A stretch of DNA of 64,000 nt from a phage. The stretch lies in the sequence record PZ171032.1; one strand, written 5' to 3'. Positions 5,628 to 58,035 of the stretch are shown in pieces; positions within the stretch are counted from its first letter, which is position 1; each line of letters opens with the position of its first letter. The notes beneath the pieces are model-generated. The model did no database searches, was not told where the DNA came from, and was given only the letters and a program-made list of their open reading frames with translations. Both the position numbers and the translations under genes were made by a program.

Positions 5628-7610
5628 TTATTTGATGTTATTCTTTGTATCGATCAGTTCACGGTATTCAATCATAGCAGGAGTGTCCCAATATTTCAAG
5701 CCCACATGCTTCAAAAGTGGATATTTCTTTTCCAATCTTGCAATATAGGCCTTTCCGCACTTAACCCGGTTGGCGATTAAGATTTTGGCACGATGATTTA
5801 GCTCACTGTGCTTCCACGCGGTGTTACCTTCCCACTTGTGGAAATGTGGCCGATAATTTCCAAAATCCTGCATGGGGATAATTTTCCCTAATTGTCTATA
5901 CAGGCTGTCATATGAAGTTTCATTTGCTGCGCGAGTCAGTAAGAATTTCCAGGCGTCCTCTTTCAACAAATGTTCCACATTTTTCTCTGTAACATACTGG
6001 CAATCAGGATCAGTCCAAAGCAGACGGGATTCTGATACCAGGTACAGGTCTTCCCCTTCAGGAATCTGGAGTGCCGCACGCACACGGTCATAATTTTGCT
6101 GGTAGATGTTACTCAGCTGTCCCAGCCAACAACTTCCACGTTGGATATCGCCCTCATAAGGAATGCAGTGCTTAATCTTCTTGAACTCTGCCTTAGTAAT
6201 ACGTTCACGACGGAAGTAACCATCCTTCTCAAGCTTTTTAACCCAATAACCTGGCTCGTAATGAGTTTTTGTTTCACCTTTCTTCGCAGGTCGGCGAGGG
6301 AGCTCTGATAACAATTTGACCGTATCTGCAAAGAACGGGTGGTGTGCCGCTTCTTTAAACTCTTCCACCAAATCCGTGTTACGGCAATAGAAAACGTTGC
6401 GTCCGGTGATCTCGCTTAAGTAGTTACACTTATTTCGGTTATATTTGCCGTCTCCGTCGTTAAACACTAAGTAGACCCCTCGTAAGAACTCCGACTTTCC
6501 GTAGCAGGCGTAACCTATGCGGCCTTTATTTAAGCCGCCAGCGAAGATCTCACAATCTCCCAAACTTCCTAGTCCTGTCTCTTCCCATCGGTCCCACATA
6601 AAATTCTTACCGAAGATGTGCCCGAACACTCCACTGTTCTTCATCATCTCACGTGCTTCTGAGGATGTTTTTGCTGTCTCCAATTCCGCAACAACTTCTG
6701 CCCCACGAAGACGGATACCCTCTTTGACAAAAGCCTCCAACCGCTCTTGGAATCCACCATCGTCGTGCCCCTCTATGGTCCATTCGCGCCCAGGGTTAAT
6801 ATTGCAATCCCCAATAGGGATCTCTACACAGATTGCAGGGTAGTCTGTCAATGTTTCCAGAAACTTAGAGCGGTAAGGTTGGTGTCCCATCACCACACGG
6901 CTCTCATCAGAGCTGGTATAACCTTTCAGGATAGTCATTTTCCAACCATCTTTCTCGTAGCGATACTGCGCCTCAACCTTGTCACCTTCCAGCATCTTAC
7001 TGGTCATAGGGTCGGTAACGGTAAACGGAAACTTTGCATAGCGTAGGCATGACGCAATAGCAGTGCGATATTTCAGAATATGCTCTTTCTTAACATGGAA
7101 CTGAACTTTTACCCCGTTGTGCTCTTCAGTCTTTCGCTCGCGGATCTTGGTAACGTTTGGGATACCCTGATCCAAGAACAATAGATATGTGCTTTCAACA
7201 CCATTGTGTACACTGATCACATCGAAAGTGTCCACCATGCTGAACGGGGCCTTTGAACCAACACCTTTATTACCCACCAGAGCGTTGCTGTTGCGCTTGG
7301 TTGACTCTCCGAGGTTCATGAAAGTGTTGCGGACCATCTCTTCTGACATGCCTAATCCAACGTCCTGCACAAAGAAGTATGGTTCAAGGTCTGTAGGAGA
7401 GTGAATGATGATCGGTACATCGCCCCGTCCAGACTCAACATGAGAGTCCACAGCATTGAAGATTGGTTCACGGCAGCTTGCCAGCACCTTATCTTCGTAA
7501 ATCCCTTTAATGATTAGCCCAAAAGTCTCTTTGTTCAGAGAAATTGAGCCCCTGGTGACCTCCATATTTCCAGTTAGCACTGCTTTAGTTTCATTACTGT
7601 TTACAATCAT
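5628..7610 (-). CDS. GHKL-superfamily ATPase, Hsp90-like N-terminal domain, with a large uncharacterised C-terminal region
   Basis: N-box 'EPIFNAVDS', G1 box 'QDVGLGMS', Hsp90-like 'NLGESTKRNS' and G2 box 'GNKGVGSKAPF' within the first ~130 aa; the remaining ~500 aa match nothing I recognise. Confidence 0.6.
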   Translation of the reverse strand: MIVNSNETKAVLTGNMEVTRGSISLNKETFGLIIKGIYEDKVLASCREPIFNAVDSHVESGRGDVPIIIHSPTDLEPYFFVQDVGLGMSEEMVRNTFMNLGESTKRNSNALVGNKGVGSKAPFSMVDTFDVISVHNGVESTYLLFLDQGIPNVTKIRERKTEEHNGVKVQFHVKKEHILKYRTAIASCLRYAKFPFTVTDPMTSKMLEGDKVEAQYRYEKDGWKMTILKGYTSSDESRVVMGHQPYRSKFLETLTDYPAICVEIPIGDCNINPGREWTIEGHDDGGFQERLEAFVKEGIRLRGAEVVAELETAKTSSEAREMMKNSGVFGHIFGKNFMWDRWEETGLGSLGDCEIFAGGLNKGRIGYACYGKSEFLRGVYLVFNDGDGKYNRNKCNYLSEITGRNVFYCRNTDLVEEFKEAAHHPFFADTVKLLSELPRRPAKKGETKTHYEPGYWVKKLEKDGYFRRERITKAEFKKIKHCIPYEGDIQRGSCWLGQLSNIYQQNYDRVRAALQIPEGEDLYLVSESRLLWTDPDCQYVTEKNVEHLLKEDAWKFLLTRAANETSYDSLYRQLGKIIPMQDFGNYRPHFHKWEGNTAWKHSELNHRAKILIANRVKCGKAYIARLEKKYPLLKHVGLKYWDTPAMIEYRELIDTKNNIK

Positions 7611-25047: not shown

Positions 25048-25069
25048 AACCGCCCCGTCAGGAGCGGTT
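25048..25069 (-). terminator. weak terminator-like hairpin
   Basis: aaccgc / gcggtt stem with a 10-nt loop; U-rich tract follows on the minus strand. Confidence 0.25.
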
Positions 25070-26831: not shown

Positions 26832-27098
26832 TTAAGCTTTTTGCTCTTCGTTTTTAACGTGGTCAGGGTGCTGGCAACCCCACCGGAGCGAGATGAATTT
26901 GCTAATAAGCTGGGGGCAGGCTACTGAAGGTGCATATATCCACGCATACCATTCAGGAAGCGTATCATTATACCCCATATGAATAAACACCCCAGTCATC
27001 ACCGCCATGCCTATGTTCGACCATAGCTTAGATTGGGATACTTTCGTAGGGTCATCAGATGCCGCAACCAGTCCCCATAAAAACTGAGTTAGTTTCAT
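26832..27098 (-). CDS. small membrane protein (holin-like topology)
   Basis: 88 aa with 2-3 hydrophobic segments ('FLWGLVAA', 'IGMAVMTGVFIHMGY', 'WYAWIYAPSVA') and a charged C-terminus; directly downstream of a fiber gene. Confidence 0.45.
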   Translation of the reverse strand: MKLTQFLWGLVAASDDPTKVSQSKLWSNIGMAVMTGVFIHMGYNDTLPEWYAWIYAPSVACPQLISKFISLRWGCQHPDHVKNEEQKA

Positions 27099-27109: not shown

Positions 27110-28156
27110 TTAAGCATAAGATATAGTGATCCATTGACCGTTTACAAGTTTTTGGATAGCACCTGTCCAGTAATCACCTTGATAAGGGTGTTTATAAGCG
27201 TAGTTACCAGAGCACATCACATGTCCAGGGTAGACTCTTGACTCTCTGTAGGTGGTTTTGAAACGGTTCGCTATCCTTACATCGTCAACCCCTCTACTGG
27301 GCATAGGGACAGTAAGGTTACCACTACCGTCTGCGCTGTTACCGTTTACCCTGCGGACCACGTTTCTTCCACCAACGGTTGCATATTGGCCTCTAACGGT
27401 TTCATCGTTACAATCAACTCTTCCACCTATTTGAGCGCTTCCGCAGGATTGTTGTCCGTTAACAGTGGCTCTTGGTATCGTGACCGCATTGGCATTTGCA
27501 GAGGAACTTTTTGCATCGTTGCATTCAAGATTTCCTTGGATAGCCAGTCTTGCACGGTTGGCAGTTATAGCATTGAGCTTCATAGCCGAAAACACAGTCT
27601 GCCCACCAGAAGGTTGAAATCTCCAACGGAACCCGTCTATTTGGTGAGAAGGATCATCAAGGTCTGTGCCGTCAGCACCACCGATGTTGTCCATAATCCA
27701 GAAGTCCATCGTCGTCTTGTCTGGAGTTATGGTGGTATATATTGCCGCATTGTCTGTTGACGCAGATGCAAACTCGATTCTTTGAAGGCCTAAAGTTTGA
27801 GTCTGAGTCATTATGTCTCCAGACTTGTCAACATACAGATCGTCCATTTCTTCAGGCGAGTATACATTGAGAACTTGACGTGCAGCAGCTTTGTCTGGAA
27901 CGTCTGCTAGATTATTAGTGACCCTTAAGAATCTATTATCCCATCCTGGGACAACATCTTCTGTTAAATGCTTTAACCACGCAGAAAGCATGTGAAGTTC
28001 AAAGTTAACAACTTCACATGCCACTCTTTGTGTCATATCCCAACCTTTCAATCTCTCTTCTTTTTTTGGTTGAGACTTATTCAACTCTCCCGTATTTTCA
28101 AGCACAACATCCTGATTGGCCCAAATATCAAGAGGGATAACTGGTTTAGTCATCAC
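27110..28156 (-). CDS. tail fiber protein with P2 gpH-like C-terminal tip (paralog 2)
   Basis: 348 aa; C-terminus '...AIQKLVNGQWITISYA' resembles the conserved P2 H / Mu S tip ending; paralogous to 29168..30208. Confidence 0.7.
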   Translation of the reverse strand: MMTKPVIPLDIWANQDVVLENTGELNKSQPKKEERLKGWDMTQRVACEVVNFELHMLSAWLKHLTEDVVPGWDNRFLRVTNNLADVPDKAAARQVLNVYSPEEMDDLYVDKSGDIMTQTQTLGLQRIEFASASTDNAAIYTTITPDKTTMDFWIMDNIGGADGTDLDDPSHQIDGFRWRFQPSGGQTVFSAMKLNAITANRARLAIQGNLECNDAKSSSANANAVTIPRATVNGQQSCGSAQIGGRVDCNDETVRGQYATVGGRNVVRRVNGNSADGSGNLTVPMPSRGVDDVRIANRFKTTYRESRVYPGHVMCSGNYAYKHPYQGDYWTGAIQKLVNGQWITISYA

Positions 28157-28183
28157 GTTCTCCTGAGAAAATTCCTTAGGACT

Positions 28184-28212
28184 ATTTTAACACTTTAGGG
28201 AACAAAATGCAA
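28184..28212 (-). promoter_or_regulatory. sigma70-like promoter with extended -10 (TGnTAAAAT)
   Basis: On the minus strand: -35 TTGCAT, 17-bp spacer, TGT-TAAAAT; sits right after the 28212..28233 terminator and before the fiber gene. Confidence 0.4.
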
Positions 28213-28233
28213 GAACGGAGTCCTTTCCGTTCT
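28212..28233 (-). terminator. rho-independent terminator-like hairpin
   Basis: agaacgga-gtcctt-tccgttct 8-bp stem followed on the minus strand by TGCATTTTGTT. Confidence 0.45.
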
Positions 28234-28242
28234 GACCTTTGT

Positions 28243-28557
28243 TTACCTTTTACTATGCTCTACGAGCATGTGCAAAATCTTTTGTACATCGGCTCTGATG
28301 CCGGAGACATCTGTCCTGACATCCTGCTTAAGGTCGTTAATATCGGCCTCTAGCTTGCTTAACCGGGTCTCTATAACGGAATCAAGTTTATCTTTTGTAA
28401 CCATACTGTTTTTCACTAAGATGAGGTCTTTCTCCAGCTCATCCAACCTCTTGGAAATGCCTTTCCATTTGGTGTGCCACTGGTTGAAAGCCCATACACA
28501 GATCGGGACAACGGTACCCATGCAGATACCGTACAATGCCGCCAAATCCAACTCCAC
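28243..28557 (-). CDS. membrane-anchored coiled-coil protein
   Basis: 104 aa; N-terminal hydrophobic segment 'LAALYGICMGTVVPICVWAF' followed by a charged helical region. Confidence 0.5.
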   Translation of the reverse strand: MELDLAALYGICMGTVVPICVWAFNQWHTKWKGISKRLDELEKDLILVKNSMVTKDKLDSVIETRLSKLEADINDLKQDVRTDVSGIRADVQKILHMLVEHSKR

Positions 28558-28568
28558 AACACCTCCTC

Positions 28569-29153
28569 TTAGAGGGTAGGTCGCTCCGGGAAGAAAATGT
28601 CAGGGGCTTTAGATGTATCTATTTCAAGAAGTTTTACCCTGTACATTTTCAAATCTCTGATGTTACGTTTCTGGTCATCAGTAAGATCATATTCAAGGTC
28701 AATCATGTCTTGATAGGCACCAATTCTAGCAGTAGCCCAAGCAAGTTCTGTCTCTATGACACCCTCTGCCTGTTGAACAAAGAATTCATTATCTGTGACA
28801 AATTCATCACCAACTAAACGCAAAGCGTCGTGGTGAAGCATAATGTTTTCTGGTACCTCTTCTTTTTTGGCGATAACCACACGAAGACCTGGAGCAGGCC
28901 ATAAGGCATCAGGTTCTTCTGTAGATGTCTTAAGAATTCCCTTCTCGTCAACAAGTAGGAAGATACAACCCGGATTTTCTTGTCGCAATGTTCGTGACTG
29001 CACATACCAATCGCCATCATCATTACGTAAAAAATACCCAGTGTATGCGGTGTAATCCTCAACCTCTTGAGGGGTCAGCTCCTTGGTTTCCTTGTTGGCG
29101 TGGTATTCGCCAGATCCCGGTTGGTAAAGTTTAAACTCTTTAAGTATTTTCAT
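28569..29153 (-). CDS. tail fiber assembly protein (Tfa chaperone family)
   Basis: C-terminal 'LTDDQKRNIRDLKMYRVKLLEIDTSKAPDIFFPERP' matches the Tfa signature as recalled (a conserved Y-R, a D-x-S and an A-P-D-I ... P tail); immediately downstream of a gpH-like fiber. Confidence 0.75.
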   Translation of the reverse strand: MKILKEFKLYQPGSGEYHANKETKELTPQEVEDYTAYTGYFLRNDDGDWYVQSRTLRQENPGCIFLLVDEKGILKTSTEEPDALWPAPGLRVVIAKKEEVPENIMLHHDALRLVGDEFVTDNEFFVQQAEGVIETELAWATARIGAYQDMIDLEYDLTDDQKRNIRDLKMYRVKLLEIDTSKAPDIFFPERPTL

Positions 29154-29167
29154 GCTAGTCCTCCGAT

Positions 29168-30208
29168 CTATGCATAATTAACAGTGATCCATTGACCATT
29201 TACAAGTTTTTGTAAAGGTCCTGCCCAGTAAGTTGAACCACGCATCTCTTTTTTGTCACCGAAATGCCAGCCTGTGACAACGTAGCCGTTGCGGATTGGA
29301 GATTCAGAAACGCCGTCCACAAGTCTTGCACCGATTCTGATGTCTTGCACACCCGTCTGCGGGATAGTGATCGTTACATCACCGTTACCGTTAGCCGTCA
29401 CTCCGTTCACAGAGCGAACCACATTTCTGTTACCTACAACACAGTGCTGGCTTCTTACAACCATACTGTCACAACTTGCACCACCATTAACATATACTGA
29501 CCCAGCCGTCAACTGACTAGCCACATTACAGTTGGTGAATGTTGCGGTATTGCTGATAGTAAGGTTATTGCACCTCATGTTATCGACAACTTCAACATTG
29601 CCTACCACTTTCAACAGCGCACGGTTAGCCGTGATCGCGTTAAGGTACATCAAAGTGAACTCTGGATTAATATCCGGCTGAGTTGGCTGGAATCTCCAAC
29701 GAAACGCATCTATTGTAGATGTGCCACCATCATCAAACGACCCAAAATTATCACTTAACCCAAAGTCGAGAGTTGTCTTATCTGGGCCAATAGTTGTCTC
29801 TATCCAAGCCTTATCTGTCTCGGCAGCTTTAAAGTTGATACGTTGCAAACCCAATGGGCCTGTCATTGTATCACCTGTAACTTTTACATACCTAGCGTCT
29901 GCCTCTTCCTTAGTAATAATCCCAAGGTTTCTACGGGCAACAGGAATGTTCAAAAGATCACTCAAGTTATTATCACGTACCAGATAACGGCCTTCTTGAG
30001 CGGGGATCTGCTCGTCAGCAATGTATTTTGCCCAAGTCCCGAGCATATTGAAAATATAGTTAAGCTCTTCGCATGAGGGCTTTTGACCAAGATCCCAACC
30101 TTTTCTCCACAAATCATCAATCGGGCGTAGCCTGTTCTGTCTGTGGGTGTTAGGCAGAACCTGATCCTCCTCTGCCCAAATCTCTAATGGAAAACTAGGT
30201 TTTGACAT
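29168..30208 (-). CDS. tail fiber protein with P2 gpH-like C-terminal tip (paralog 1)
   Basis: 346 aa; C-terminus '...GPLQKLVNGQWITVNYA'; N-terminal and central regions align with 27110..28156. Confidence 0.7.
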   Translation of the reverse strand: MSKPSFPLEIWAEEDQVLPNTHRQNRLRPIDDLWRKGWDLGQKPSCEELNYIFNMLGTWAKYIADEQIPAQEGRYLVRDNNLSDLLNIPVARRNLGIITKEEADARYVKVTGDTMTGPLGLQRINFKAAETDKAWIETTIGPDKTTLDFGLSDNFGSFDDGGTSTIDAFRWRFQPTQPDINPEFTLMYLNAITANRALLKVVGNVEVVDNMRCNNLTISNTATFTNCNVASQLTAGSVYVNGGASCDSMVVRSQHCVVGNRNVVRSVNGVTANGNGDVTITIPQTGVQDIRIGARLVDGVSESPIRNGYVVTGWHFGDKKEMRGSTYWAGPLQKLVNGQWITVNYA

Positions 30209-30220
30209 TTTATCTCCTGA

Positions 30221-32293
30221 TTATGAGAAGTCTGGCGGGACAACATCTTCTACATACCCTTTCAGAGCAACCTGCCCCATATGAAGCACGGTAGAATCTC
30301 TAGCGGTAACAGTGATGCTGTCAGACATTACTTGCGGGTATGCCCACACATACTGTTTTACCTCAGGGTATCTATACTCTATAGTTGCCATGTTTCCGCA
30401 AATACATCTCCATAAAAATTCTTGGTAATTCCTAGTTGGGTCGTAGCCATATACCGGAGCAAGCTCTTTACTAGGAACGAACCCTGCAAGGTATTGTATT
30501 TCAGACGGTTGCCAACCTAACTTAACGATAGGTATGTTTACAGACTCTTTTGCCTTTTCAATACCTCCCTGCATCACCCAATCGTAGCACTCAGTGCAGA
30601 AGAAATCAAGAGCACCTGCTTCCTTTTTATATTGGTCAGCAAGGTTCAGCTTTTGCGTAAGCTCGGTTTCCATAATGGTTGGGAAAAACAGCAAAGCTGT
30701 CATCTGAGCTGATGCAGCGTGTGCTTTTATTGCCTTTGAAATAGCCGCAATACGAGCGCCAAGCTTACCACGACAAAATGCTACATACTTGTCGTAAACA
30801 CCGCCAGTTTTAGGATCGTCAATAGTCCCAATATCTAATGCATACTCGCCTGTCTCATCATAAAACGCCTGTTTTGTAGGGTAATCATAAATACAAGGTC
30901 TACGAGTATCGGTATTGTACCACCACCACGGTTCACCAACCTGCATAATCACTGGCAGGTTGTTTCTCATAGCGGCTGATGCAAAATTCTTAAATACTGC
31001 AGTAAGGAAATTCATACCCTCTTCAATGGTTGGAGACAGGAGGTAGCTACAAGGTGTATACCCTGTTTTAGCGTAGTTATCGTTCCAGTCTCTTTGGGTC
31101 CATTCCAACGGGCAGGCGTCGCTGAAAAGCTCAAAACTTACAGATTGCATAACGTCGAAGTTATGTCGTTTGGCATTGTACATAAAATCATCATGCCATT
31201 TATAAGCTGCAGCGTTTAGCGCTCCTGTTCTGTTTATAGACCATTGGGTTCCTGACCATGTGTAGTCATAATAATGACTCATACCAACATAATGGTTTAT
31301 GGTTCCGGTATAGCCCAGACGCTTGATATTGTTCAACACCCTTAAAGGAGACACGTTCCACATATCGTCATATGCGGTGCAGATCCCAACATCGTGCTCT
31401 TTAACCTGAATATTGTTAAGTTGCATCATTTTCCAGCCTGTGTCTGGCTGGAGCAGATCTAGGCGCAACTCACACTCTACATTTTCCGTTCTCGGGTCTG
31501 TGCTATTACTTACCCAGTCTTTAGGCATGAGCGGTATTAAAATCCTTCTCACCTGCCGAGGATCAACACCCATCATGTTGTTGTTCTGGTCCATCCCGAC
31601 GCAGTCCTCAAAATCAATATGAATTTCTGCAACATTCTTATCCTCTGAGATGCTGACAGCATATTGAGCTAAAGGAACATAGATGATTGTGCCATCAACA
31701 AGGTCTACAGTCATAATCATCTTTTCAGGAGTGGAGAAGTTGCTGGCGTTGGTTATTGACATTCTGAACCAAAGCTTGGTGTTTCTCATCTCATAGTGAT
31801 CATCAAACCCAATACCGAAATGGTCATACTTGTCAACTGTTTCCCAAATGCACCCAGCCATACCCCCATATGTTCTTGACACTAAACGGTTAATACAACA
31901 GTTGTTATCTGCAACAATACAGGTACTTTCAGTCTGCTGAGTAGTTGTAACCCAATACCTTGGGTGAAACATTCTCTCCTCAACAGTATCCCAAGATATC
32001 CTGTCAAGATTCTCATCTGAAACTATTGTACATTTCGCCCTTTGTGTTCCAATCATCACCCCTTGAGATTTTGATGAAAACTCCATAAAGAAGCTTCTTG
32101 GCAACCTGTTGGGTAATTTGTCAACAATTTCCACAGGGATCTCAATACTGGTTGCCCCAATTGGGATAGTTACATCGCCCTCAACATGATTATAATCCCT
32201 ACCAGGAACGGCAGTATCCTGAACTGTTCGGTAATGAAACTGTGCAGCCATTGTAGAGTAATCACGGTAAGGTTTAAAAACAGCTGTTGCCAT
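30221..32293 (-). CDS. baseplate/tail fiber-associated protein with possible glycoside-hydrolase-like C-terminal domain
   Basis: 690 aa; aromatic-rich C-terminal half ('GEPWWWYNTD', 'FFCTECYDW') reminiscent of carbohydrate-active enzymes; position between baseplate and fiber genes. Confidence 0.45.
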   Translation of the reverse strand: MATAVFKPYRDYSTMAAQFHYRTVQDTAVPGRDYNHVEGDVTIPIGATSIEIPVEIVDKLPNRLPRSFFMEFSSKSQGVMIGTQRAKCTIVSDENLDRISWDTVEERMFHPRYWVTTTQQTESTCIVADNNCCINRLVSRTYGGMAGCIWETVDKYDHFGIGFDDHYEMRNTKLWFRMSITNASNFSTPEKMIMTVDLVDGTIIYVPLAQYAVSISEDKNVAEIHIDFEDCVGMDQNNNMMGVDPRQVRRILIPLMPKDWVSNSTDPRTENVECELRLDLLQPDTGWKMMQLNNIQVKEHDVGICTAYDDMWNVSPLRVLNNIKRLGYTGTINHYVGMSHYYDYTWSGTQWSINRTGALNAAAYKWHDDFMYNAKRHNFDVMQSVSFELFSDACPLEWTQRDWNDNYAKTGYTPCSYLLSPTIEEGMNFLTAVFKNFASAAMRNNLPVIMQVGEPWWWYNTDTRRPCIYDYPTKQAFYDETGEYALDIGTIDDPKTGGVYDKYVAFCRGKLGARIAAISKAIKAHAASAQMTALLFFPTIMETELTQKLNLADQYKKEAGALDFFCTECYDWVMQGGIEKAKESVNIPIVKLGWQPSEIQYLAGFVPSKELAPVYGYDPTRNYQEFLWRCICGNMATIEYRYPEVKQYVWAYPQVMSDSITVTARDSTVLHMGQVALKGYVEDVVPPDFS

Positions 32294-32979
32294 TAACCCT
32301 CCTGTCTAGTTGCGTTTACTGTAATACTTTCACAATAAATGGTTGTGGTGTCCCAATCAGGTCTTACGTCAGGAACATATAGCAAAGTAGCCAGCCCACC
32401 AACTCCGAATTGGTTTTCTTCCCACACTGATCCGAAGCCAAGAGCTGTGGAGTCCCCTTCAAAACCAAAAGCTTGCCCTTGCGATTCTGTAAGACGCAAA
32501 TGACAAGGCAATGGTAGCATATCTAAGATCTGGTCGATAGACTGCAGTATGTCAAAGCAGGTTTTTCTAATGTTTATGTCAAACCTGAAGTTGTCTCCTT
32601 TCCACGTATCGAAATTGTCTCTTCCGAACAATTGTCGCAAGGTAGAGATGACATCTTCGCGAGTCCCGCCCCTTGATGCTGCGGCCTGCTGAATAATTAG
32701 TGTGGCACGAAAATCAGCATCTGAAAGTCCATTTCTAAGAATACCAAGTTGATTACCAACTTCGTCAAGGTATCTTCCGCTGGCATTGTTAAGCAATCTT
32801 CCTTCAGCCAAACCTACCAGCATCTTATCAACATCCTCCAACCTTTTAAGGTACACGGTTAAGAATGTGACTAAATTAACCTTCTCAGCCAGAAAATCTC
32901 CAGGCAGGTAGTCAAGACCTCCCTGAACAAAATCTGGCAGAGTGTGGATGTGGTTAACATCCGACTTAATCTCTGCCAT
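32293..32979 (-). CDS. putative baseplate wedge/tail-fiber attachment protein
   Basis: 228 aa directly downstream of the baseplate-J-like gene with overlapping stop and start; assignment is by position. Confidence 0.35.
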   Translation of the reverse strand: MAEIKSDVNHIHTLPDFVQGGLDYLPGDFLAEKVNLVTFLTVYLKRLEDVDKMLVGLAEGRLLNNASGRYLDEVGNQLGILRNGLSDADFRATLIIQQAAASRGGTREDVISTLRQLFGRDNFDTWKGDNFRFDINIRKTCFDILQSIDQILDMLPLPCHLRLTESQGQAFGFEGDSTALGFGSVWEENQFGVGGLATLLYVPDVRPDWDTTTIYCESITVNATRQEG

Positions 32980-32990
32980 ATCTCGCCGCC

Positions 32991-34481
32991 TTAAATAGTT
33001 TGTTGGAAAGTTATATTACTTTCGTCGAGGTCAAACACCTCGGTCATGTTCGCAACAATATCGTTTGTAGTGTAAGCTTCATCAGAAGCTCCTACTGGTT
33101 TAACTTGAATTACCAGTCTATTAAATCTGCCTATTGACACAGCAGCAGATGCAGCACCGACCAATTGGATATTATACAACGTATCTGCAACATCCAGTCC
33201 GTTAACAACCTGCAAAAGAGCCTCTACAATGGCATCTTTTTCGGTTGTGGAAAGCGCAGCACCGGAGTAGGTAATTCTTACATCCAGTCGGTAGGTATTT
33301 GCCTTGGAATAATAAATTCTTTCAGTTTGACCGTCAGATGTAGTGACATCGTAGAAAATATTACCATAAGTCCTGTTCGTACAGGCGATAGTTTGGTAAA
33401 GCGCTTGGCAAATGTCCTCCGTTGCACCACCAAACACAACCACTTGGAACTTGTAAGGAGGTATACCTTTAGCATCAGTTTTATCGGTGTTGTTGGAGAA
33501 CACTCTCACTTTCTCAACACCTTTCACCTCGCTTACAGCGCTAAGGATTGCAGGACGAGTGGCCTTAGATGTTAACTGTTTTGTGCTGGAAGCTCTTAAG
33601 CGATACTCGGAGTCTTTCTCAACATCCCTGCCCTCATTGAATCTTTCTCGGTTGGTAAGTTTGATAAATCCACTGGGCGTAGGCGACATTGTTGTTACGG
33701 TTTCTGCCTCTCTTGACAGCTCACCAGCCTCGTTGGCGATAACATCCAGGGTGATAGTTCTTTCCCCTACAATCGGGGATACTCTGAAATCTACTCTACT
33801 ATTAAGTCCAACTTGATCAAGATTCGAATTGTACCCTATCCACAACGTCCCTGTCAACATATCGATCTGAATCAAATCGTCGTTCAACAGGGTTGTATTA
33901 TCGACAATGAATTGCTTAATCTCTCCGTAAAAGCTTGGCAAATCAGAAGAGTCCAGAGACTTATCTGTTAAAACCAGGCTTTTTGTTTTGATACTTCCAT
34001 CTGTCTGGTTGGTAATTTGGAAGTTGTATTTCCCAATCCTTAGGTCTGGAGCATTTATTCTGTGAGCAATAAGATTCCCTGCTACTTGCACATCGTTGCT
34101 AAGAACAAAGTTGCCACTGTCCAGCGTATAAGTTTTGGAATCATAAATCATATTGTACGGCACAGTTGTGTTGATTGTCAACTGGCAGGTACCTGATGAT
34201 TTAGAACGGCCTCTTCGGTAAATACCCTGTCTTCCAAGAAGCTCATCTAGGTAAATACCTTCTGCCCCATACAGCGTCTGTGATGCGTATACAGATGCTG
34301 CCATAAGAATAAGTTGATACTCTCTCTCGTTGAAGATAGTGGTCAGCTTATCTGCAACGGAGTTACTCTGTACGTTGAAGTTTTCGCCAAAAGCACGGAT
34401 CAGGCTTTGCTTAGTTTCAACGATTAGGTCATTTAGGGTTGGTATAACGAAACCAGCCTCTGTCAATCCATACTTAGCCAC
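32991..34481 (-). CDS. baseplate J-like protein
   Basis: 496 aa; N-terminal pattern 'YGLTEAGFVIPTLNDLI...L..AFGENF' typical of the baseplate J family; preceded by its own promoter. Confidence 0.5.
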   Translation of the reverse strand: MAKYGLTEAGFVIPTLNDLIVETKQSLIRAFGENFNVQSNSVADKLTTIFNEREYQLILMAASVYASQTLYGAEGIYLDELLGRQGIYRRGRSKSSGTCQLTINTTVPYNMIYDSKTYTLDSGNFVLSNDVQVAGNLIAHRINAPDLRIGKYNFQITNQTDGSIKTKSLVLTDKSLDSSDLPSFYGEIKQFIVDNTTLLNDDLIQIDMLTGTLWIGYNSNLDQVGLNSRVDFRVSPIVGERTITLDVIANEAGELSREAETVTTMSPTPSGFIKLTNRERFNEGRDVEKDSEYRLRASSTKQLTSKATRPAILSAVSEVKGVEKVRVFSNNTDKTDAKGIPPYKFQVVVFGGATEDICQALYQTIACTNRTYGNIFYDVTTSDGQTERIYYSKANTYRLDVRITYSGAALSTTEKDAIVEALLQVVNGLDVADTLYNIQLVGAASAAVSIGRFNRLVIQVKPVGASDEAYTTNDIVANMTEVFDLDESNITFQQTI

Positions 34482-34514
34482 GTCACTCCTCCGGTATGAA
34501 AATCTCTACAAGGT

Positions 34515-34543
34515 ATTTTACCAAATTTTGTAACAATAGTCAA
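34515..34543 (-). promoter_or_regulatory. sigma70-like promoter with extended -10
   Basis: On the minus strand: -35 TTGACT (reverse complement of 34538-34543), 17-bp spacer, TGG-TAAAAT (reverse complement of 34515-34523). Confidence 0.55.
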
Positions 34544-40300: not shown

Positions 40301-40331
40301 TGTGCCTCCAGGTTAAACAATCATGATAATT

Positions 40332-40360
40332 ATTTTACCAGATTTTGAGTTAATACGCAA
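40332..40360 (-). promoter_or_regulatory. sigma70-like promoter with extended -10
   Basis: On the minus strand: -35 TTGCGT, 17-bp spacer, TGG-TAAAAT (reverse complement of 40332-40340). Confidence 0.4.
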
Positions 40361-54441: not shown

Positions 54442-54484
54442 TTTATAGCATCCTTATTAGTCATGTTGTGCACCATATTTGTGT

Positions 54485-54513
54485 ATTTTACCATGATTAT
54501 GGTGCATTGTCAA
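54485..54513 (-). promoter_or_regulatory. sigma70-like promoter with extended -10 and overlapping inverted repeat
   Basis: On the minus strand: -35 TTGACA (reverse complement of 54508-54513), 17-bp spacer, TGG-TAAAAT; a 9-bp inverted repeat TGCACCATA / TATGGTGCA (54469-54477 and 54498-54506) straddles the -10 element. Confidence 0.55.
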
Positions 54514-57987: not shown

Positions 57988-58006
57988 TATTATTCCTCAC
58001 TAATGT

Positions 58007-58035
58007 ATTTTACCACAAAGATGAATCAAAAGCAA
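58007..58035 (-). promoter_or_regulatory. sigma70-like promoter with extended -10
   Basis: On the minus strand: -35 TTGCTT, 17-bp spacer, TGG-TAAAAT (reverse complement of 58007-58015). Confidence 0.4.

Follow-up and report, generated by a model that had tools for sequence, protein, structure and literature searches.

The stretch of DNA analysed here (the window: 64,000 nucleotides of record PZ171032.1) carries two related tail fibre genes and a single chaperone gene, which raises the questions of what the two fibres are, how the second arose and how one chaperone could serve both. The window comes from a Vequintavirus, an rV5-like myovirus infecting E. coli: it is 99.5% identical in DNA to a deposited phage over the full query, and a DNA search with it gave at least 80% query coverage in 114 records. 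Fibre A, the tail fibre assembly protein (Tfa) and fibre B correspond to rV5 gp33, gp32 and gp30, the gene order is identical in the window, the BASEL phage annotation and the rV5 annotation, and the fibre genes are syntenic, lying after the baseplate wedge genes as in relatives. We identify the locus as the short-tail-fibre module of this phage; its genes are as follows.

29168..30208, minus strand: short tail fibre copy A, rV5 gp33; 346-aa ORF matching phrog_4465 'tail fiber protein' at E 2e-171.
28569..29153, minus strand: Tfa, tail fibre assembly chaperone of the Mu U / P2 G class, rV5 gp32; 194 aa, Pfam PF02413 Caudo_TAP.
28243..28557, minus strand: 104-aa protein, rV5 gp31; a single transmembrane segment at the N-terminus, the rest coiled-coil-like, phrog_5345 (function unknown).
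27110..28153, minus strand: short tail fibre copy B, rV5 gp30; 347-aa ORF matching phrog_4465 at E 3e-165.
26832..27098, minus strand: 88-aa conserved small protein, rV5 gp29; phrog_1322, annotated as a membrane protein.

Two short fibres of the Mu S / P2 H type with one chaperone is a correct description of this locus but an ordinary one, as the arrangement is already known for rV5 and its relatives. Kropinski et al. 2013 (PMC3606486) described rV5 gp33, gp32, gp31, gp30 and gp29, with the fibre paralogy at 42.3% and a late promoter P030, and Maffei et al. 2021 (PMC8594841) labelled the BASEL Vequintavirus locus 'short tail fiber x2 + tail fiber chaperone' with Mu GpS/GpU homology; the idea that paired fibres address two LPS chemotypes is also in print (PMC3606486 / PMC8594841). 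Ours is the same locus in another isolate of the genus, with nothing of substance different: relative to rV5, 2 of 346 residues are changed in copy A and 6 of 347 in copy B, and in the intergenic stretch that precedes copy B 2 of 121 aligned positions vary (99% mean column identity). The text of the rV5 paper states that mass spectrometry detected gp30, gp32 and gp33, whereas its mass spectrometry table of 19 proteins has no entry of 346, 347 or 194 residues, so that the fibres are absent there (PMC3606486). A phage Tn-seq preprint that matched 'gp30/gp33' was discarded, as it concerns unrelated phages. What we add is comparative detail only, namely the replacement of a 157-aa gene, a B-type N-terminus and tip homogenisation in a relative.

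Both fibres match phrog_4465 over all 342 of its profile positions, and copy A divides into recognisable ends. In a PDB-wide phmmer search its N-terminal stretch, residues 1-108, hits 9CUY (E 1.4e-19), the phiTE short tail fibre model that covers the baseplate-binding part (PMC11972413), and its residues 286-343 align to 440-501 of Mu S 5YVQ_A (E 8e-7). Copy A is 98-100% identical among deposited Vequintavirus genomes and clusters with single-copy orthologs in an N-terminal tree; by sequence comparison its orthologs are phi92 gp147 and the one short tail fibre present in other Vequintavirinae. Pfam gave no match above threshold for either fibre or the small proteins, and NCBIfam none among the five proteins of the locus. 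An AlphaFold2 monomer of copy A, built from a 9-sequence alignment only, reached a mean pLDDT of 34.5 and a pTM of 0.22, too low to be of use. AlphaFold3 trimers published for the phi92 ortholog look similar to Mu gp49 (PMC13450770), and phi92 gp147 itself is fibre III, present as six trimers under the wedge protein gp145 and proposed to act in irreversible binding (PMC13450770). The short fibres of phi92 and phiTE (gp236, PDB 9CUY) are orthologs with the same N-terminal wedge-docking domain as those of the window, but each is single-copy; the phiTE fibre also differs distally, where it has a coiled coil and an Ig domain, and it is proposed to bind flagella (PMC11972413), and phi92-like phages are without copy B and without the 157-aa and 88-aa genes.

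The earlier note had recognised a gpH-type tip in the fibre C-termini, and the alignments bear this out. A profile of ten fibre orthologs matches Mu S 5YVQ_A at E 1e-10, and in pairwise comparison with the fibre C-terminus Mu S scores E 1e-6 and P2 H E 1e-3 over the same segment, so that the C-terminus is homologous to Mu S and P2 H aligns there. The likeness to Mu S (gp49)/U (PDB 5YVQ) and P2 H/G extends over the C-terminal ~60 residues, up to a terminal P-[LIV]-Q-K-x-[LIV]-N-G-x-W motif. The window fibre is much shorter, at 346 aa against 504 and 669 aa for the Mu S / P2 H pair, and its N-terminus is of the Vequintavirinae / phiTE type, unlike that of Mu S and P2 H. The T4 short tail fibre gp12 is a functional analogue that binds the LPS core for irreversible adsorption; it uses gp57A as chaperone and attaches differently to the baseplate. 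HHpred similarity to T4 gp12 was given for both gp30 and gp33 (Kropinski, PMC3606486).

Assignment of the 194-aa protein as Tfa, also made in the earlier note, was confirmed by Pfam Caudo_TAP well above threshold (45.8 bits against a cut-off of 22.1, E 8.5e-12, residues 121-192), by phrog_136 (E 7e-37) and by alignment of the family profile to Mu U (5YVQ_B) over its full length, positions 1-174 (E 3.3e-25). Like Mu U, to which it is homologous throughout, Tfa is encoded directly downstream of a fibre; its N-terminal class differs from that of Mu U, the Mu-U-like MxHLKN class being found in GAP31-type relatives. Tfa proteins combine a variable N-terminal fibre-binding domain with a conserved C-terminal helical domain (PMC9608196), and in the window protein, whose two-domain layout matches Mu U, conservation is concentrated in the C-terminal third. 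As claimed, Tfa follows only the upstream fibre: its gene starts 14 nt after the copy A stop, whereas copy B is followed by the 88-aa ORF, and neither the ORF list nor PHROG profile matches gave a second Tfa downstream of copy B. The tip is coupled to its chaperone: across nine phages the identity of the tip follows that of Tfa (Mantel r 0.73, p 2e-4), whereas that of the N-terminus does not (r 0.17). Because copy B keeps a tip class and terminal strand that match the single Tfa, one chaperone most likely folds both fibres, a reading drawn from these shared features together with the co-variation.

Copies A and B are 43% identical over their full length (BLASTP, E 9e-95), which upholds their proposed paralogy, yet the similarity is unevenly distributed. 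Near-identical C-termini had been described for the pair, and this is accurate for the quoted end strings (LQKLVNGQWITVNYA in copy A and IQKLVNGQWITISYA in copy B, both exact) and for the last ~20 residues (75% identical), but does not reach the tip loops at 293-326 just upstream of the shared end, which at 21% are the least similar segment of the two proteins. The shared end is also visible in the DNA.

27111..27173, strand not assigned: 3' end of copy B, one member of a 63-nt direct repeat; the other lies at 29169-29231, at the 3' end of copy A (repeat search).

This repeat pair is 83% identical, compared with 52% for the fibre genes overall, and within the last 20 codons identical residues share their codon in 10 of 13 cases, compared with 44 of 129 in the rest of the genes (Fisher p 0.005). 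In the lineage of L017, a metagenomic relative, the tips of A and B are nearly identical (88%), while in the window they differ; residues 287-344 of copy A share 58.6% identity with fibres of Salmonella phages of ~52 kb. The ~60-aa tip is a swappable module. Tip diversification by duplication, the interpretation offered in the earlier note, fits the window genome, but the paralog difference that is constant across relatives lies in the N-terminal domain and not in the tip; the nearly identical L017 tips further imply that dual receptor specificity is not the general reason for keeping two copies. Mu presents alternative tips by DNA inversion (G segment, invertase), whereas the window holds them as two co-resident genes. 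An invertible arrangement like the Mu G segment was rejected, as flanking inverted repeats and an invertase are lacking: the search gave a single inverted repeat, 18 nt long and 78% complementary, and no gene annotated at the homologous locus codes for an invertase.

Copy B is listed among the open reading frames as 27110-28156 from a GTG, but we place its start at the conserved ATG at 28153 since the GTG codon reads GCG in rV5; a ribosome-binding site, AGGAG, lies at 28160-28164. Eighteen positions that are invariant in copy A and seven single-copy orthologs are altered in copy B, 11 of them within residues 19-67, and the RPIDDLW motif is changed by I30K, D32E, L33E and W34R. Identity to the orthologs across the N-terminal 70 residues is 60% for copy A and 43% for copy B. 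The B-type N-terminus forms its own clade (76% support) and is conserved in three lineages, and the two-copy layout recurs in the divergent relatives L017, L018 and L019, with copy B retained down to 52% identity. Taken as sequence evidence, these features mark copy B as an old, derived paralog that has a separate type of N-terminus and tip loops of its own.

The region upstream of copy B holds two candidate regulatory elements.

28212..28233, minus strand: terminator-like hairpin between the two putative transcription units (terminator scan; extended fold -17.5 kcal/mol, z -3.3).
28184..28212, minus strand: TTGCAT, 17 nt, TGtTAAAAT, a promoter-like element preceding copy B (sequence; TGTTAAAAT match).

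A terminator and an extended -10 promoter had been proposed between the copies. The promoter part corresponds to rV5 putative late promoter P030 (Table S4C, PMC3606486): TGtTAAAAT at 28184-28192 fits a TGnTAtAAT-like -10, upstream TG included, with a -35-like hexamer at 17 nt, TGGTAAAATA-like motifs are enriched on the window minus strand (17 matches against 6 expected), and L017 and L018 keep both hexamers ahead of their copy B. The terminator part fared less well: the hairpin is stable, but its tail, UUGCAUUUUGUU, has an interrupted U-tract and overlaps the -35-like hexamer, and it was not called in the rV5 terminator list (ARNold/MFOLD; PMC3606486). Its position is kept in L018 and L017 with some two-sided stem changes, although it is weaker there. 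Copy B would accordingly be a candidate for independent transcription from the predicted promoter.

The small proteins around copy B were described as interleaved membrane proteins, which agrees with the strong hydrophobic segment of the 104-aa protein (Kyte-Doolittle 1.91 over residues 5-23); for the 88-aa protein the label comes from annotation only (phrog_1322, RefSeq), and no 19-residue segment of it reaches Kyte-Doolittle of at least 1.2. The two were considered as paralogs and rejected at 18% identity. A lysis (i-spanin-like) role for the 104-aa protein would draw on topology and weak PHROG matches only and was not adopted. The 104-aa gene follows Tfa in all Vequintavirinae examined (Av-05, Seunavirus, and the Klebsiella and Erwinia relatives), and the 88-aa protein is 51-52% identical to its counterpart at the same position in sister genera. 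Single-copy genera have the order fibre, Tfa, 104-aa, 157-aa, ~88-aa, fibre, and copy B occupies the place of their 157-aa membrane-protein gene; tblastn with eight queries gave no significant remnant of that gene in the window (best E 0.065).

We consider it quite probable that the locus as a whole is a two-fibre, one-Tfa short-fibre module with an old paralog B. In the working that we propose, the N-terminal ~100 residues of copy A would dock the trimer under the baseplate wedge, a beta-rich shaft would follow, and the last ~60 residues would form a Mu S / P2 H-type tip that binds the LPS core and needs Tfa to trimerise, with gp32, encoded directly after A, acting as a Mu U-type chaperone. 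Copy B would have replaced the gene for the 157-aa polytopic membrane protein two genes downstream and have brought or acquired the hairpin and a sigma-70-like / late promoter, with which it would head a second late unit, gp30-gp29-gp28. The two copies differ mainly in the N-terminal attachment domain, across three lineages, and, in the window genome, in the tip loops. Most likely, we infer, the virion here carries short fibres of two kinds, docked differently and each directed at its own LPS-core epitope in irreversible adsorption.

Duplication is the best explanation for where copy B came from, because its shaft is closer to that of copy A (61%) than either is to the orthologs (43%). Copy B, or at least its N-terminal half, could instead have been gained by recombination from an unknown phage. 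In the N-terminal tree B copies fall outside all A copies and single-copy orthologs, sister support for A and B drops from 50% for the whole protein to 2% for the N-terminal domain alone, and tip modules move between unrelated phages, as the Salmonella phage match illustrates; weak support of this kind leaves room for a chimeric or foreign B N-terminus. We nevertheless hold recombination to be improbable, since nothing closer to copy B than A-type fibres turned up outside two-copy genomes in 50,697 phage records or in a 5.8-billion-protein search, and shaft and terminal strand share derived similarity with A. Far less credible is the view that copy B does nothing of its own, as a redundant duplicate or one in decay. 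The chaperone gene adjoins A only and copy B gathers 2-7 times as many amino-acid changes as copy A within the genus, but its ORF is intact in every Vequintavirus record examined and its within-genus dN/dS of 0.06-0.07 (the two copies together span 0.03-0.07) contradicts decay. Copy B also comes with a separate ribosome-binding site and a promoter-like element that is conserved, survives in distant relatives, and is matched at 90% protein identity or more in 117 records, every listed genome record carrying both copies. Both fibre copies are functional and under purifying selection.

If copy B arose by duplication and is maintained, the question is where its product sits. A and B might compete for the same six wedge sites or form heterotrimers, giving a mixed fibre population. 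Both N-termini match the phiTE-type attachment domain phrog_12846 (A 2e-19, B 2e-10), single-copy phi92 has six fibre III trimers per baseplate (PMC13450770), and a shaft core and last 20 residues as similar as those of A and B (61% and 75%) could permit co-trimerisation. Such sharing is nonetheless unlikely in our judgement: copy B has lost residues, RPIDDLW among them, that are invariant in A and all single-copy orthologs, and a separate, supported N-terminal clade kept in three lineages looks like adaptation to another partner and not drift. Going beyond the two-fibre module with its old paralog B, we tentatively suggest, as a possibility that we would not yet favour, two independently anchored fibre sets whose ~60-residue tips are shuffled between the genes by intragenomic exchange, Tfa limiting which tips are allowed.

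rV5-like phages rank among the E. coli phages most often isolated and are candidates for use in therapy and biocontrol, and their terminal receptor step relies on short fibres. For host-range engineering two points are useful: the tip forms a self-contained module linked to a single chaperone, and copy B differs chiefly in attachment. If separately anchored sets and tip shuffling do prove true, they would represent a DNA-inversion-free counterpart of the Mu/P1 tip switch, with avidity weighed against breadth.

The 3.5-kb region carrying the two short tail fibre genes matches Escherichia phage 241Ecol014PP at 99.5% identity and is present at ≥80% query coverage in 114 deposited rV5-like genomes. 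In BASEL annotations, two genes of the locus are named 'short tail fiber protein' and one 'tail fiber chaperone'; the genes of the region are listed below in transcription order.

Genes of the fibre region
32991-34481, minus strand: baseplate wedge protein, ORF, first in transcription order
32293-32979, minus strand: 228-aa baseplate protein
30221-32293, minus strand: 690-aa protein with N4-type 'non-contractile tail sheath' domains
29168-30208, minus strand: fibre copy A, 346 aa, phrog_4465 end to end, rV5 gp33
28569-29153, minus strand: Tfa (tail fibre assembly chaperone), 194 aa, above the Pfam Caudo_TAP threshold, rV5 gp32
28243-28557, minus strand: 104-aa protein, rV5 gp31, then an 89-nt gap before copy B
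27110-28153, minus strand: fibre copy B, 347 aa, phrog_4465 end to end, rV5 gp30
26832-27098, minus strand: 88-aa protein, rV5 gp29
after the 88-aa gene in transcription order, minus strand: 581-aa fibre, then 1878-aa fibre

The Calx-beta, NCTSP_N and TIM-barrel_NCTSP domains of the 690-aa protein (E 4e-80) are those of the N4 gp65 non-contractile tail sheath protein, and a 2026 preprint describes its family as the N4 glycan receptor binder in Vequintavirus and Justusliebigvirus. Between 16 and 21 GenBank records titled 'Campylobacter phage', with Campylobacter jejuni as stated host, are ~98% identical to the locus; this host label looks doubtful.

An earlier note had interpreted the locus as duplicated fibres of the P2 gpH and Mu S type accompanied by one Tfa. 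Copies A and B share 43% identity over their full length (E 9e-95) and end in exactly the strings quoted there. In PDB-wide searches, residues 286-343 of copy A aligned with residues 440-501 of the Mu tail fibre S (5YVQ_A, E 8e-7) and residues 1-108 with the phiTE short tail fibre (9CUY, E 1.4e-19), values that reached 1e-10 and 1.7e-31 with a profile of ten orthologs. The C-terminal segment that aligns with Mu S also aligned with P2 H (pairwise E 1e-3), and every Vequintavirinae fibre, like Mu S and P2 H, carries the terminal motif P-[LIV]-Q-K-x-[LIV]-N-G-x-W. The match of a nine-ortholog Tfa profile to Mu U (5YVQ_B) spans the whole protein (E 3.3e-25). Because the C-terminus is homologous to Mu S and P2 H and the 194-aa protein is a Tfa, the interpretation is essentially correct. 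An AlphaFold2 monomer model was unusable (pLDDT 34.5).

The locus is also an already published feature of rV5-like phages. According to Maffei et al. 2021 (PMC8594841), Vequintavirinae sensu stricto have a pair of short tail fibre paralogs and a chaperone, homologous to the single locus of phi92-like phages and ultimately to Mu GpS/GpU. The phi92 ortholog gp147 is fibre III, present as six trimers under the wedge protein gp145, with irreversible binding proposed (PMC13450770). According to the text of the rV5 paper (PMC3606486), virion proteomics detected gp30, gp32 and gp33; its MS table (Additional file 5) lists 19 proteins, none of 346, 347 or 194 residues.

In every single-copy genus examined (Avunavirus, Seunavirus, a Klebsiella group and Henunavirus), the order is fibre, Tfa, 104-aa protein, 157-aa polytopic membrane protein (phrog_7451), ~88-aa protein and fibre, with the start of the 157-aa gene overlapping the 104-aa gene by 4 nt; in phi92-like phages nothing but a 113-aa protein lies between the Tfa, which follows the fibre, and the next fibre. 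The 157-aa gene was located in three single-copy Vequintavirinae loci, and at equivalent positions in others:

L004 6949-7422
L005 7087-7560
L011 5961-6434

Vequintavirus has lost this gene: it was not found within the window, where copy B and its upstream signals occupy its exact place. Copy A is closer to the single-copy orthologs than copy B, both overall (tblastn identity 40-48% versus 36-39%) and over the first 70 residues (60% versus 43%). Eighteen positions invariant in seven orthologs and copy A are altered in B, 11 of them within residues 19-67 and including the RPIDDLW motif, whereas the reverse pattern occurs at only 6. In the shaft (126-200), A and B are 61% identical while either copy is 43% identical to the orthologs, which favours a within-lineage duplication; in the whole-protein neighbour-joining tree, the grouping of A with B has a support of only 50%.

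The upstream signals comprise a hairpin at 28212-28233, 3' of the 104-aa gene (extended form -17.5 kcal/mol, z -3.3), whose tail UUGCAUUUUGUU is an interrupted U-tract overlapping TTGCAT. This hexamer is followed after 17 nt by TGtTAAAAT and then by an AGGAG ribosome-binding site and the ATG of copy B; the promoter-like sequence appears as putative late promoter P030 in Table S4C of Kropinski et al. (PMC3606486). The coding strand of the window holds more matches to the TGGTAAAATA-like motif, the putative rV5 late-promoter motif, than expected (17 with at most one mismatch versus 6); several have a TTGAC-type -35 element, and four are exact:

34514-34523, minus strand: exact TGGTAAAATA copy
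40331-40340, minus strand: exact TGGTAAAATA copy
54484-54493, minus strand: exact TGGTAAAATA copy
58006-58015, minus strand: exact TGGTAAAATA copy

Two divergent relatives keep both hexamers, with a weaker but partly compensated hairpin. The stretch gp30-gp29-gp28, up to the terminator at 25048-25069, could plausibly form a second late unit.

In single-copy genera, three conserved small proteins (104, 157 and ~88 aa) are encoded inside the tail-fibre operon. The interleaved membrane proteins of the earlier note hold for the 104-aa protein, which has an N-terminal membrane anchor, and look doubtful for the 88-aa protein, in which no convincing hydrophobic segment was found. The phi92-like 113-aa protein (locus L006, 6555-6896) occupies the same position as the 104-aa protein, and in both the anchor is followed by a coiled-coil-like region, an i-spanin-like topology within a tail-fibre operon. 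For the 113-aa protein there is a weak match to an Rz-like spanin PHROG (E 5e-4), and the 2013 rV5 paper (PMC3606486) assigned no spanin. In the divergent two-copy contig L017 the gp29 homolog (7076-7432) has 118 rather than 88 residues, with a C-terminal extension rich in R-Y-S-D/G repeats (ERYSGTGYSRYSDDRYSDNKYSDF).

Searching a large protein collection with copy B gave matches at 78% and 46-49% identity, on contigs (L018/L019 and L017, respectively) that retain the full two-copy layout. Identities to the window proteins are 87% (A), 78% (B) and 77% (Tfa) in L018, and 72%, 52% and 47% in L017. In a tree of residues 1-125, A copies group with single-copy orthologs (100%) and B copies form their own clade (76%); copy B is defined by its own N-terminal type. 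In the tip tree (287-346), L017 A is sister to L017 B (100%), and window B pairs with L018 B on a long branch. At residue ~290 the identity between L017 A and B rises from ~55% to 90-100% in amino acids and from ~50% to 75-88% in nucleotides, and three further members of this lineage (P0003, P0005 and P0006) also have a tip common to both copies. This sisterhood and jump in identity indicate that the ~60-residue tip is a module exchanged between paralogs within a genome. The module also passes from one phage to another unrelated one: over residues 287-344, copy A shares 58.6% identity with fibres of ~52-kb Salmonella phages. The sole DNA repeat in the region of the window is 63 nt at the 3' ends of A and B (83% identity), where codon identity is in excess (10/13 versus 44/129, p 0.005; post hoc, small region), and it may be a remnant of tip homogenisation between the copies.

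Across nine phages, Tfa identity co-varies with that of the tip (Mantel r 0.73, p 2e-4) but not with that of the N-terminus (r 0.17). Seunavirus NINP13076 and GAP31 have differing tip/Tfa pairs within one genus. The A and B tips are both of the class that accompanies the window-type Tfa and have the terminal strand in common, which fits a single Tfa that would act on both fibres.

Both copies are maintained within the genus, with dN/dS of 0.03-0.06 for A and 0.06-0.07 for B; the most divergent isolates carry 14-16 substitutions in B versus 2-8 in A. Neither tip shows signs of continuing diversification inside the genus. A single hypervariable site, residue 155 of copy A (~29744-29746) in the shaft loop 'DNFGSFDDGG', is F, A, T, V or I among six Vequintavirus proteins otherwise 98-100% identical. 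Synonymous divergence between phage BP9 and the window is 0.087 in copy A and 0.024 in Tfa but 0.285 in copy B, a difference that implies recombination inside the genus, with its breakpoint between Tfa and copy B.

In summary, our analysis adds modestly to the published picture of this locus: copy B stands in place of a membrane-protein gene, has an N-terminal type specific to it, and belongs to a pair of paralogs between which the tip is exchangeable.
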